In this document: piece after piece, positions 4,880 through 30,331 of the stretch
Numbering within the stretch: position 1 is the first letter of the stretch
How the letters are laid out: every line of letters begins with the position of its first letter
Assembly: GCA_951406725.2 (NCBI GenBank)
Contig: OX597828.1
Span: 30,132,001-30,196,000 of the forward strand
Reading direction: 5' to 3'
DNA: 64,000 nucleotides
Source: Octopus vulgaris
Lineage: Eukaryota
Notes under the pieces: generated by a model
Told to the model about the DNA's origin: nothing
Seen by the model: the letters and a program-made list of their open reading frames with translations, nothing else
The model's database searches: none
Position numbers and translations under genes: made by a program

Positions 4880-6489
4880 AATTCACTCATCAGTCCACAA
4901 ACACTCTCCAAGTTTTCCTATCATTTATAAACTCTCTCACCTCTCTCACTCCGACACCGCTAACCACTAACGCTTTCCTCACTCCATCCATCCACACAAA
5001 CCGAGTTCTGCTGCCTACCACTTCTCCCTTCATCACCCTCCTTACCATCCGCTCTTCATCCATACTCACCATGTGGCCAAACCACCTCAACATTCGTCTA
5101 TCCATTTTGGTTGTTAGTCTTCCTTTCATTCTTCCTCGCCTTCGCACCTCCTCTTTCCTCATCCTCTCCATCCGTGTCACACCAGCCATAGCCCTTAAAT
5201 ATCTCATCTGAAACACATCTTGTCGCCTCCTTTCTGCCTCTCTCATCCCCTATGTCTCTGCACCATATAAGATTGTCAGCACAATCATGCCCACATATAG
5301 ACCTCTTTTCGCTTTCATACTCAACCTTTTATCTCTCAACATACCTTTCACAACTCCCAGTACCTTACTCCCCTTCCTCACTCTGTATCACACCTCCTCA
5401 GCCACCCCCCATCCGCCGTCACATGGGACCCTAGCTGCTTAAAAACACTCACCCCCTCTAACATCTTACAATTTATACTCACATCCGTTCTACCAACCAT
5501 TCCATCTGTCAAACATCTCATCACCTTACTCTTAGCTACATTCAGTTCCAGTTTCTTCCTCTCACACCCTCTACCAAACTCTACAACCGGTATCCTCAGT
5601 TGCTCTTCCGAAGCCGCCACCAGTGCTGTAACATCAGCAAACAACTAACTCACCTGTCATTTCTCTCCATTTTCTCCCACCATTTGGGATCCCTTACCAA
5701 AGGTTCTAGCAGTCACCTCCTCACCATACATCCATATATAAATTAAACAGCCACGGAGACATCACACAACCCTGTCTTAACCCCACCTTCACATCAAACC
5801 ACTCACTCACTTCACCAACCACCCTACTAACGCACGTCCTACTTTCTCTATAAAAGCTCTGAACAGCTCTCAACAATCTACCATCTACTCCATATAACCG
5901 CAACACCTGCCACAATGCATCCCTACCCACACGGTCATATGCCCTCTCTAAGTTCATAAAGGCCCAATATACATCCCTCGCTTTTGCCAAAAAATTCTCA
6001 CATACTTGATGTGCACACCTTCTTCTACTCCTAAAACCACATTGCTCCTCCCCTAATATACTCTCTGTCTGGTTCTTCATCCTTACACTCAAAATTTTCC
6101 CGTACAGTTTACCAAACACACTACAGATTTAGACCCGTAAAATTTCTATACTCACGTTTATTCCCTCTCCCATTGTACAGTGGCATTATACAGGCACTGC
6201 ACCAGTCTTTTAGCACTCTTTCAACCATATAACAAATATATGCTTCACTATCACGCCTCCTTTCTTTAGGCATTCCACTGTACACCCATTTATATCTGGC
6301 GCCTTCCGGTTTGTCATCAACCGCAAAGATTCCCTCACCTCCCCGCTTCCAATTGCAGTGTAGTTCCATTTTCCAACAACAAGCATTCACCTCTCTCCTC
6401 CAACAGCCACTATACTTGCCTCCCTACAATCTTCCACATTTAACATCTCACTAAAATGCTCTGTCCATCTCATTTGTACATTCTCACTC
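4880..6489 (-). mobile_element. 5'-truncated, frameshifted RTE-like LINE (reverse transcriptase and C-terminal region)
   Basis: Consecutive ORF pieces carry RT motifs: EEQCGFRSRR, FMNLERAYDRV, VGLRQGCVMSPWLFNLYMD, FADVTALVA (YADD-like), LNVAKSKVM, LRWFGHMVSMDEERMVRRV. Confidence 0.92.
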
Positions 6490-9759: not shown

Positions 9760-10137
9760 GTTAGTACTCTCAAATTTACAACTCAAATACTACACTGAAG
9801 ACGGATATGAGAGAGTAAAAATAAAAAAAAATAATTACATCTCTTTAATCCAGAAACGCGTATGTGATTGGTCAAAGCCGGGTGGATTAGTTACATTTAC
9901 TCTTAACCTACGTGAATTAAGACTATTGGTGTCTAGGAGATATCTTATGGTAGAGGAATAGTATTTAACTGCTATTTCAAAATTCCGGTATGTGGTGAAG
10001 CAATTTGCTGAACCCTAATTATAATTATGCTTATAATTATAAAATTTTTGCATAAGGTTACCGATAAAGGTTCTTTTAACATACCGAACTACTTGGTAAA
10101 ATTATGAATTATTAATTAATTAATTATACTCTTTTTA

Positions 10138-10140
<3 letters not shown>
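9760..10140 (+). mobile_element. Diverged relative of the 588-bp HHR repeat (Penelope-like/retrozyme-like non-coding element)
   Basis: gtagaggaatag...actgctatttcaaaattccggtatgtggtgaagcaatttgctgaaccctaatt and ccgaactacttggt align with 24857-25050. Ends at a (TA)n tract. Confidence 0.7.
9791..9866 (+). ncRNA. Type I hammerhead ribozyme motif
   Basis: taca-CTGAAGA-c-ggat...atcc-a-GAAAC-GC-GTA-tgtg; long stem II (agaga/tctct, gtaa/ttac); palindromic stem III ACGCGT. Confidence 0.7.
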
Positions 10141-10208
<68 letters not shown>

Positions 10209-23099: not shown

Positions 23100-23164
<65 letters not shown>

Positions 23165-23481
23165 GCGTATATATATATATATATATCAGTAATAATAAAG
23201 GGTGAAATTAATTAATTTGGAATAATTATCAATTACACCAAGTAGATTTCGGCATGTAAAAGCCCCATTCGAGGAAAATTTAAGTAATACTAAGTAATTA
23301 AGGGTTTAGCAACGAATTGCCTCACCAACACACCGAATTTAGAAATAGCAGTCAAAGAGATATAGCTATTCCTTCTACTAAAAGGGGGATCTCAGTAAAA
23401 ACACAGCACTTGAAAGGCAAACACAGACAGGTAAGAAAGAAAGAATGAAATGACGGCAATCTATCATACAATTTTAAGTTA

Positions 23482-23573
23482 CCTACGGACGTACGTTTCG
23501 AAATCAAGTTTTAGGAGAGCATAAGAATTAGAAAATTCTACTTTACCCAAACTTCTTTTCTCATCGGCGCAGG
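23482..23573 (-). ncRNA. Type I hammerhead ribozyme motif (U4C core variant), unit 1
   Basis: CCTGCG-CCGATGA-gaaa..aagttt..aaactt..tttc-GAAAC-GTAC-GTC-CGTAGG. Confidence 0.75.
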
Positions 23574-24069
23574 ATACTACAATTATGAATAATTGTATAT
23601 TAAATTTTGAGATACTAGAAGGCATTATCTCAACTCAGTGTCAGAGCGAGCCAAAGCATGACCAGTACCACGAAATTCAAAGTTTGAATGAAAGTTTGTG
23701 TCACCAGCCCCCTTCCACCCGCGTGTAGCCAAGACAAAATGCTGCGGTCATTTACTGGGATAAAATATGGTTATCAGTAATAATAAAGGGTGAAATTAAT
23801 TAATTTGGAATAATTATCAATTACACCAAGTAGATTTCGCCATGTAAAAGCCCCATTCGAGGAAAATTTAAGTAATACTAAGTAATTAAGGGTTTAGCAA
23901 CGAATTGCCTCACCAACACACCGAATTTAGAAATAGCAGTCAAAGAGATATAGCTATTCCTTCTACTAAAAGGGGGATCTCAGTAAAAACACAGCACTTG
24001 AAAGGCAAACACAGACAGGTAAGAAAGAAAGAATGAAATGACGGCAATCTATCATACAATTTTAAGTTA

Positions 24070-24161
24070 CCTACGGACGTACGTTTCGAAATCAAGTTTT
24101 AGGAGAGCATAAGAATTAGAAAATTCTACTTTACCCAAACTTCTTTTCTCATCGGCGCAGG
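24070..24161 (-). ncRNA. Hammerhead ribozyme motif, unit 2
   Basis: Identical to unit 1, offset 588 bp. Confidence 0.75.
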
Positions 24162-24657
24162 ATACTACAATTATGAATAATTGTATATTAAATTTTGAGA
24201 TACTAGAAGGCATTATCTCAACTCAGTGTCAGAGCGAGCCAAAGCATGACCAGTACCACGAAATTCAAAGTTTGAATGAAAGTTTGTGTCACCAGCCCCC
24301 TTCCACCCGCGTGTAGCCAAGACAAAATGCTGCGGTCATTTACTGGGATAAAATATGGTTATCAGTAATAATAAAGGGTGAAATTAATTAATTTGGAATA
24401 ATTATCAATTACACCAAGTAGATTTCGGCATGTAAAAGCCCCATTCGAGGAAAATTTAAGTAATACTAAGTAATTAAGGGTTTAGCAACGAATTGCCTCA
24501 CCAACACACCGAATTTAGAAATAGCAGTCAAAGAGATATAGCTATTCCTTCTACTAAAAGGGGGATCTCAGTAAAAACACAGCACTTGAAAGGCAAACAC
24601 AGACAGGTAAGAAAGAAAGAATGAAATGACGGCAATCTATCATACAATTTTAAGTTA

Positions 24658-24749
24658 CCTACGGACGTACGTTTCGAAATCAAGTTTTAGGAGAGCATAA
24701 GAATTAGAAAATTCTACTTTACCCAAACTTCTTTTCTCATCGGCGCAGG
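24658..24749 (-). ncRNA. Hammerhead ribozyme motif, unit 3
   Basis: Identical to unit 1, offset 1176 bp. Confidence 0.75.
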
Positions 24750-25249
24750 ATACTACAATTATGAATAATTGTATATTAAATTTTGAGATACTAGAAGGCA
24801 TTATCTCAACTCAGTGTCAGAGCGAGCCAAAGCATGACCAGTACCACGAAATTCAAGTAGAAGGAATAGATATATCTCTTTGACTGCTATTTCTAAATTC
24901 GGTGTGTTGGTGAGGCAATTCGTTGCTAAACCCTTAATTACTTAGTATTACTTAAATTTTCCTCGAATGGGGCTTTTACATGCCGAAATCTACTTGGTGT
25001 AATTGATAATTATTCCAAATTAATTAATTTCACCCTTTATTATTACTGATAACCATATTTTATCCCAGTAAATGACCGCAGCATTTTGTCTTGGCTACAC
25101 GCGGGTGGAAGGGGGCTGGTGACACAAACTTTCATTCAAACTTTGAATTTCGTGGTACTGGTCATGCTTTGGCTCGCTCTGACACTGAGTTGAGATAATG
25201 CCTTCTAGTATCTCAAAATTTAATATACAATTATTCATAATTGTAGTAT

Positions 25250-25341
25250 CCTGCGCCGATGAGAAAAGAAGTTTGGGTAAAGTAGAATTTTCTAATTCTT
25301 ATGCTCTCCTAAAACTTGATTTCGAAACGTACGTCCGTAGG
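25250..25341 (+). ncRNA. Hammerhead ribozyme motif, inverted unit
   Basis: cctgcg ccgatga gaaaagaagtttggg...cctaaaacttgatttc gaaac gtac gtc cgtagg read directly on the plus strand. Confidence 0.75.
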
Positions 25342-25538
25342 TAACTTAAAATTGTATGATAGATTGCCGTCATTTCATTCTTTCTTTCTTACCTGTCTGT
25401 GTTTGCCTTTCAAACGCTGTGTTTTTACTGAGATCCCCCTTTTAGTAGAAGGAATAGCTATATCTCTTTGACTGCTATTTCTAAATTCGGTGTGTTGGTG
25501 AGGCAATTCGTTGCTAAACCCTTAATTACTTAGTATTA

Positions 25539-25575
<37 letters not shown>

Positions 25576-25944
25576 TAAATTAGATATAAAACCACTATTA
25601 GGCAAATCAAACAGTGAAAAACATAAACCAAAACATAAAAATAAAAATAATTAATATAATATACAAAATATATAAAATACAATATTTAAAAATTTTAATT
25701 ATTTAAATTTAAAATTAAAATTATTAATTTATATCTATATTTATATTTATAATTTTTTTTTATTAAATATATATAACTATCAAAAATATTAAAAAGTTAA
25801 ATAAAAGATAAAAAGTATATATATAGCTACTTATAGACATACATATTCGCAATACACTGTTGTCTACCACTACGAGTGCTACTGTTGATCTGGTCAACGG
25901 AACAACCTGTTCGTGCAATTTAAGTCCAAGTTGTTGTTCATACC

Positions 25945-26174
25945 TATTTCTTTACTACCCACTAGGGCCTAAACACAGAGAGGACAAACAAGGACAGACA
26001 AAGGGATTAAGTCGATTATATCGACCCCAGTTCGTAACTGGTACTTATTTAATCGACCCCGAAAGGATGAAAGGCAAAGTTGACCTCGGCGGAATTTGAA
26101 CTTAGAACGTAACGGCAGACGAAATACGGCTACGCATTTCGCCCGGCGTGCTAACGTTTCTGCCAGCTCGCCGC
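25945..26174 (-). mobile_element. Full-length SINE family A with target-site duplication
   Basis: Flanked by tgttcatacc at 25935-25944 and 26175-26184; head gcggcgagctggcagaaacgttagc. Confidence 0.92.
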
Positions 26175-26184
26175 TGTTCATACC

Positions 26185-26272
26185 ATAGACACGTACATAT
26201 TTGCAGTGGTTCTCGGTGGAATTCAGCGTGACACAGAATCTGACAGGTCTGGTCTTTTGAACTACAGGTAGT
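26185..26272 (-). mobile_element. Fragment of SINE family D 3' region
   Basis: Reverse complement tacctgtagttcaaaagaccag...tgtcacgctgaat resembles 15920-15975. Confidence 0.65.
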
Positions 26273-30101: not shown

Positions 30102-30173
<72 letters not shown>

Positions 30174-30182
30174 TATTTGATA

Positions 30183-30331
30183 CCGTAGCAAAGGTGGATC
30201 AAGCCCCAAACTCTTCACCTCGTCCTAAATATCAGTTTAATATCAATGGCACCAAATAGGGACCTATCAGATATTAAGCTGATAAGAACAGGTACTACAA
30301 TTTGTTCTTAGCCAAAAGGCCGAGAAGCTAC
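30183..30331 (-). pseudogene. U2: U2 snRNA pseudogene, 3'-truncated
   Basis: GCTTCTCGGCCTTTTGGCTAAGAaCAAatTGTAGTAcCTGTTCTTATCAGCTTAATATCTGATA...GGGGCTTGaTCCACC. Sm site altered (GATATTTAG), stem-loop IV missing, microsatellite upstream instead of a promoter. Confidence 0.92.

Follow-up and report, generated by a model that had tools for sequence, protein, structure and literature searches.

The 64,000-nt window (the whole stretch of Octopus vulgaris DNA that we analyzed) contains an array of a 588-bp unit belonging to a dispersed family that, by sequence criteria, is an animal non-LTR retrozyme carrying a predicted hammerhead ribozyme. Its insertions, which are tandem or inverted, have a tail at one end, and lie in microsatellites, display in their layout the pattern expected of a non-autonomous derivative of Penelope-like elements (PLEs). 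Paired fixed 3' ends, TA targets, a single haplotype per insertion, and an excess of 5' ends at the predicted ribozyme cut were all observed. The account that we consider probable is that these are dispersed insertions of a non-coding retrozyme, likely mobilized in trans by a PLE, whose transcripts would self-cleave in part and would serve as templates in both linear and circular form. This kind of element has already been described (PMC7229834, 10.64898/2026.07.22.740005), and the value of the family therefore lies in what it may say about mechanism rather than in a new kind of element.

Organization of the array

The array has a period of 588 bp and a GC content of 36%, and consists of a long arm of direct units and a short inverted arm (Table 1). 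Unit position 1 was set at window position 24950, which puts the predicted cut between unit positions 386 and 387. The long arm extends from unit position 194 at its 5' end to 102 at its 3' end (end site E2), and the short arm from 495 to 5 (end site E1); each 3' end abuts (TA)n. Read in the hammerhead sense, the long arm lies on the minus strand, and the junction is therefore 5'-to-5'; that is, the arms are joined head-to-head in the hammerhead sense and both point away from the junction. Both arms are 99.6-99.9% identical to a single unit, with one differing site among the direct units (23840) and differences in the inverted arm at 24870 and 25414-25415. The longest ATG-to-stop frame in the array is 48 aa and the longest stop-to-stop frame 67 aa; with no long ORF, the unit has none encoding the reverse transcriptase (RT) and GIY-YIG domains of an autonomous EN+ PLE. 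A sequence-only reading of the locus had described about 2.8 head-to-tail and about 1.2 inverted, nearly identical copies of 588 bp, with (TA)n on both sides and no long ORF. The measured arms and tracts agree with that description, as does the coding capacity when ATG frames are counted.

Table 1. Positions of features in the window
Feature	Position	Strand	Remarks
Older copy of sister family F	9789-10147	+	hammerhead 9789-9868 (canonical core), terminal module 9954-10147; ends in (TA)n
(TA)n target tract, left	23103-23186		
Further copy of terminal module	23182-23380	-	
Long arm	23185-24856	-	1,673 bp = 2.85 units
Hammerhead copy	23482-23573	-	predicted cut after 23488
Further copy of terminal module	23772-23968	-	
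Hammerhead copy	24070-24161	-	predicted cut after 24076
Further copy of terminal module	24360-24556	-	
Hammerhead copy	24658-24749	-	predicted cut after 24664
Conserved ~200-nt terminal module	24854-25051	+	unit ~495 to 102; holds E1 and E2
Short inverted arm	24856-25542	+	687 bp = 1.17 units
Predicted type I hammerhead	25250-25341	+	U4C core, 61-nt stem II, palindromic stem III; predicted cut after 25335 (between unit 386 and 387)
Partial copy of terminal module	25443-25543	+	
(TA)n target tract, right	25541-25572		

The predicted hammerhead

When a strict type I hammerhead descriptor was run over both strands of the window, it gave four matches, all inside the array, in keeping with the earlier claim of one such motif per unit, and it placed the predicted cut on the plus strand at the position given in that reading. 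Each motif has stem I CCUGCG/CGUAGG, the core CCGAUGA...GAAA, a stem II of 61 nt, and stem III ACGUACGU. The core is the U4C variant, a change that reduces hammerhead activity in vitro (PMC3088659). No Rfam hammerhead family matched the unit at its gathering score or at E values up to 10, a result that the long stem II likely explains. In an unconstrained fold stems I and II formed and the core mispaired (z −1.6); the hammerhead-constrained fold gave −17.8 kcal/mol versus −21.7 kcal/mol for the free fold, a cost of about 4 kcal/mol. Stem III is self-complementary, with −9.8 kcal/mol as a duplex; for frog retrozymes, one of nine dimers was cleaved in vitro (10.64898/2026.07.22.740005).

Conservation of the fold was examined in stem I and core motifs upstream of the terminal module, taken without a pairing filter. 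There were 4 or 5 of 5 pairs in 27 of the 31 distinct pairings, and the mean of 4.19 pairs compares with 3.43 in 2,000 shuffles (maximum 3.94), which ignore relatedness. Several pair types occur at each stem I position across families, and stem III is palindromic in its commonest forms and nearly so in families B and E. The hammerhead of family E has a U3-A8 core; this covariation is known from the hammerheads of PLEs (PMC4209133). Within the 588-bp family, stem II pair 316/372 was A-U in 22 and G-C in 17 of 39 loci, which is one inherited event. Compared across loci and families, with kinship uncontrolled, the hammerhead is conserved by compensatory stem changes, and we concluded that the fold of the predicted ribozyme is under selection across families, relatedness being uncontrolled in these tests and cleavage itself predicted.

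A dispersed family and its relatives

The 2.8 Gb assembly (G000) was searched with the 588-bp unit and gave at least 145 matches, from 40 of the 2,142 candidates. One 23-mer had 477 exact matches in the genome, and a 27-mer from the terminal region, common to the close subfamilies, had 2,637; the reversed-pattern control gave 0 for each. The close subfamilies have units of 581-596 bp and 86-98% identity, the more distant of them carrying the canonical CUGA core. At least five sister families retain a hammerhead upstream of the conserved ~200-nt terminal module. The distant families B (562 bp), C, E (~556 bp), and F have this module in common, and their hammerhead precedes the module signature by 80-135 nt; several sister families have tandem units, and the middle parts do not align between families. 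Relatives of the family F copy in the window, about 90-95% identical, are spread over the genome. The dispersed 588-bp copies have neither LTR-type organization nor protein, and none of the retrozyme copies fetched continued into coding sequence for RT or endonuclease. That other genomic copies keep the fold, as the sequence-only reading had supposed, is seen in both the dispersed copies and the sister families, which retain the hammerhead; its proposal of a retrozyme or PLE identity is supported by tandem non-coding hammerhead units, PLE-like ends, and TA targets. Our literature search found no paper on the 588-bp family; Repbase and Dfam were outside its scope, so the family may already be catalogued.

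Two fixed 3' ends

Insertion ends were scored for the 56 insertions behind the first 100 of the 477 23-mer matches. The 3' ends clustered at unit ~587-5 (E1) and ~94-109 (E2), ~100 nt apart. Head-to-head insertions made up 29 of the 56, and their ends were E1 plus E2 in 20 cases, E2 plus E2 in 1, and E1 plus E1 in 0, with one irregular end in the remaining 8; TA-like flanks were present on both sides in 21 of these 29. The 27 single-orientation insertions ended at E1 (18), at E2 (8), or elsewhere (1). Lengths ranged from 0.3 to 7.7 units, many being under one unit, and the insertion in the window is bounded by E2 at its left end and by E1 at its right. Family B also has two end clusters ~100 nt apart. 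As the 3' ends fall at two fixed sites, the arrays are not randomly permuted, and the circular permutation envisaged earlier was not found in that form. Note that two pairs of loci (L024/L025 and L023/L275) have identical junctions at two places of one contig and are likely segmental or assembly duplicates.

PLEs leave partial tandems, inverted 5' copies, and a tail of 30-40 bp at one end, and insert at (TA)n targets (PMC8557442); a purified PLE protein from a lizard cuts the two target strands and extends them, and two internal starts define the tail (PMC11167929). Judged by where the arms end in the unit, the one-site-per-arm ends seen here are the PLE tail signature, and each arm would represent a cDNA whose synthesis was primed from a single target strand, at either E1 or E2. 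In the predicted fold of the terminal module, a conserved long-range helix closes the AT-rich loop that contains E1, and E2 comes after the last hairpin. Covariation in the module is weak, with two-sided change in 7 of 36 predicted pairs and a covariation term of about zero. We infer that the module is likely the structure by which reverse transcriptase binds and primes.

5' ends at the predicted cut

Stops were counted in pattern-anchored samples comprising 173 arm passes at 105 loci. Immediately 3' of the predicted cut, within the 7 nt of unit 387-393, 13 of 138 passes stopped, at 12 loci, compared with 1 of 125 at 380-386 and a background farther upstream (386-254) of 23/2,244 per 7-nt window, or ~1%. 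Treating arms as independent and ignoring relatedness, the binomial P for this excess is about 2e-9. Six of the 13 stops lay at 387-389 and seven at 392-393; at two loci (L342 and L387) the first base is unit 387 itself, preceded by short duplicated stretches, and in several short insertions (L288, L290, L304, L305) both arms stop at 388-406. Most arms pass the cut site, and stop rates were also raised at 401-407 (8/147) and at 414-494. In sister families, stops no more than 7 nt 3' of the cut occurred in 3/19 (E), 2/14 (F), 0/35 (B), and 0/11 (C). A length-biased set, made up of loci picked with long or hammerhead-containing queries and superseded by the pattern-anchored samples, had 6 of 91 stops at the cut, which was not significant after scanning. 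A split of the stop counts between U4C and U4 units was set aside, as ties for best reference mislabel L345 and L348.

The pile-up at the predicted cut suggests run-off on a cleaved 5' end as its simplest reading, and thereby that cleaved linear RNA may also serve as template, with stalling of the reverse transcriptase as the rival. The many copies beginning at this position hint that the predicted ribozyme works in the germ line. The papers searched, from which subscription journals were mostly outside scope, included none on insertion 5' ends at a hammerhead cut.

Haplotypes and the template

In 39 loci, differences amounted to 107/20,912 (0.51%) within arms, 100/20,015 (0.50%) between the arms of a locus, and 7,022/434,838 (1.6%) between loci. 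In four arrays (L393, L383, L398, L399) every unit has variants absent from the other arrays compared. One haplotype per insertion points to a monomer bottleneck, either because a circle was copied or because synthesis jumped repeatedly from one end of a single cleaved monomer to the other; alternatively, the template may have been an uncut transcript from an array that was homogeneous beforehand. The arms in the window cross the cut site three times and once, which rules out their synthesis in one pass over a cleaved monomer. Three arrays (L050, L042, L044) are haplotype mosaics, which a single circle does not explain. The rolling-copy origin proposed in the sequence-only reading thus stands in part: the monomer bottleneck is consistent with it, but for part of the family the source appears to have been cleaved linear RNA and not circles. 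The unit was also present in assembled contigs of sequencing runs presumed to be RNA, contigs that give no ends, strand, or level; among the sequencing runs holding the unit, none was recorded as RNA.

Search for a PLE partner

For the partner search, 150 of 6,136 GIY-YIG candidates were scored, most of them from one lineage. The genome contains a young intact PLE, with 16 open 781-aa frames among at least 148 GIY-YIG matches (50 loci examined). Its 781-aa protein matched GIY-YIG at E 4e-7 and RVT_1 at E 1e-6, the latter falling slightly short of the curated cut-off, and its cysteine linker corresponds to the Neptune/Nematis type as PMC8557442 describes it. The element terminates in (TA)n; 12 of the 16 copies end at one site and 4 at another, 40 nt away. 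These loci (L081-L096, e.g. G000:C16:20834500-20842000) have a 479-aa ORF1 followed by the 781-aa RT plus GIY-YIG frame and terminal repeats of ~450 bp; near the 3' end is what looks by eye like a U3-A8 hammerhead core. When the terminal module was compared with 12 PLE 3' regions, those of the young PLE and 11 others, none of the 12 matched. The linkage of copies to RT/GIY-YIG ORFs foreseen by the earlier reading was likewise absent among the fetched copies. A short motif resemblance between the end of the young PLE and the module was unsupported by profile search. PLE fragments near module copies were rejected as partners: those at L205 and L212, read in detail, look like independent neighbors in shared TA tracts, and those at L058, L077, L100, L261, L262, and L497 were judged independent neighbors from coordinates and flanks.

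Proposed mechanism and its alternatives

In the explanation that we favor, a PLE reverse transcriptase/GIY-YIG endonuclease acting in trans would cleave a (TA)n tract on both strands, and two cDNAs would be primed at two fixed internal sites on one RNA. Multimeric transcripts would partly self-cleave, probably via a stem III dimer, and the cleaved monomers would either circularize or remain linear. Multi-unit arms, including those in the window, would arise by copying round a circle or by jumping between the ends of one monomer, and arms beginning at unit 387-393 by run-off on cleaved linear RNA; repair would then join the two cDNA 5' ends head-to-head. Counting against this explanation are that none of the 12 PLE 3' regions compared carries the module, that the tail of the young PLE is ~40 nt and not ~100 nt, the weakened U4C core, the cleavage of just one in nine frog retrozymes in vitro, the raised stop rates at 401-407 and 414-494, the non-significant excess in the length-biased set, the lack of a stop excess in families B and C, and the mosaic arrays. 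A more far-reaching version, to which we give somewhat less than even chances, would make the insertions of this superfamily a fossil record of a germ-line retrozyme cycle: from the two strands of the target, a PLE dimer would prime synthesis at two fixed positions of the same RNA molecule, ~100 nt apart, cleaved linear RNAs and re-ligated circles would both be templates, and the weakened core of the youngest subfamily would tune the balance between them.

The stops just 3' of the cut could instead reflect PLE-type insertion from linear multimers that are always uncut, with the hammerhead folded and mostly idle and the RT stalling at the base of stem I. In vitro the lizard PLE inserted uncut RNA without ribozyme activity, and no reads ended at the cut (PMC11167929); 392-393, where 7 of the 13 stops fall, is where the enzyme first meets stem I; and this alternative also accommodates the passage of most arms beyond the site and the lack of excess in families B and C. 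Yet the other six stops lie within stem I up to the exact cut, two arms begin precisely there, and the stops fall to 1/125 in the next 7 nt. Homogenization of each locus with private variants, moreover, needs a monomer step, and the catalytic core is conserved across families; we regard stalling as an unlikely explanation on this evidence.

The remaining alternatives do away with the RNA cycle, with the PLE, or with the inverted arm itself. Units that are terminal repeats or remnants of internally deleted autonomous PLEs might have been multiplied by local unequal crossing-over or conversion after 5'-truncated insertion, with no independent RNA cycle. Such a model is discussed in 10.64898/2026.07.22.740005, and it would suit the many insertions under one unit and the mosaic arrays; but no fetched copy runs on into RT or endonuclease coding sequence, both inverted arms have the haplotype of their locus in common, and tandem units recur in several sister families whose middles do not align. 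We consider amplification at the DNA level very improbable. The inverted arm might also recall twin priming by a LINE-type, L1-like enzyme. Inversions joined 5'-to-5' are a known by-product of LINEs, and the window has a frame fragment at 5721-6119 on the minus strand that presumably derives from a LINE-like reverse transcriptase. The second priming site here is, however, fixed and downstream of the first rather than scattered upstream, there is no poly(A) end, and the ends match a PLE tail, which leaves a LINE enzyme only a slender chance. That the inverted arm is an artefact of assembly is scarcely credible: no read or contig was found across the whole locus, but 29 of the 56 insertions, and sister families too, repeat the head-to-head layout with varied junctions while both end sites stay the same.

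Relation to known systems

The term non-LTR retrozyme covers tandem repeats with type I hammerheads whose transcripts occur in linear and circular form, PLEs being their proposed partners (PMC7229834), and vertebrate retrozymes have been tied to PLE terminal repeats (10.64898/2026.07.22.740005). The present family resembles the animal non-LTR retrozymes of both papers in its non-coding, low-GC tandem units with one type I hammerhead each, its short palindromic stem III, its dispersed monomers to multimers, and the presence of PLEs in the same genome. The 588-bp unit falls within the 51-972 bp range of 10.64898/2026.07.22.740005 and is longer than the 170-400 nt RNAs of PMC7229834. The family differs from these retrozymes in its 61-nt stem II and U4C core, in that about half of its insertions are head-to-head with fixed ends, and in that no homology to PLE terminal repeats was found. 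With EN+ PLEs of the Neptune/Poseidon type (PMC8557442, PMC11167929, PMC4209133) it shares partial tandems, an inverted 5'-truncated copy, a tail at one end, (TA)n targets, two internal start sites, a hammerhead upstream of the 3' ends, and, in sister family E, the U3-A8 core; it differs in having no ORF and a tail of ~100 nt rather than 30-40 nt. The excess of 5' ends at the predicted cut contrasts with the lizard PLE study, in which no RNA ended there (PMC11167929). Chlamys non-autonomous elements such as MRC1 (PMC8557442) are likewise non-autonomous, multicopy head-to-tail insertions in microsatellites, but they mostly lack hammerheads and have 3' ends in common with an identified partner, whereas no partner was found for the 588-bp family.

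What the family adds is the ~100-nt tail, the rule of one site per arm, and a genomic trace of the predicted ribozyme cut. The role of the hammerhead in PLEs has been called unclear (PMC8557442), it was dispensable in vitro (PMC11167929), and circular templates are a proposal (PMC7229834, PMC4209133). The youth of the family and its hundreds of near-identical insertions allow 5' ends, start sites, and the identity of the template to be counted from genomic sequence alone, and the ~200-nt module is a candidate recognition module for in vitro test. If the fossil-record reading were true, the genome itself would directly attest that hammerheads of the PLE type are active in vivo as cleaving ribozymes and that they shape the insertions.

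Neighboring sequences and other repeats

The right (TA)n tract adjoins the end of another repeated AT-rich element (25571-25700), which is followed by a very high-copy short repeat (25916-26190) that we take to be a SINE. A U2 snRNA match of 110 bits at 30141-30331 on the minus strand has its 3' part replaced by TA repeats and is likely a truncated copy. About 21 kb of the window (42450-64000) is an A-rich, strand-skewed satellite with periods of 13, 20, and 38 bp. Unrelated hammerhead-like motifs were seen in ordinary intergenic repeats at nine loci (L055, L058, L059, L089, L093, L127, L147, L157, L195); as there are many of these, the genome probably has several more ribozyme-bearing repeat families.
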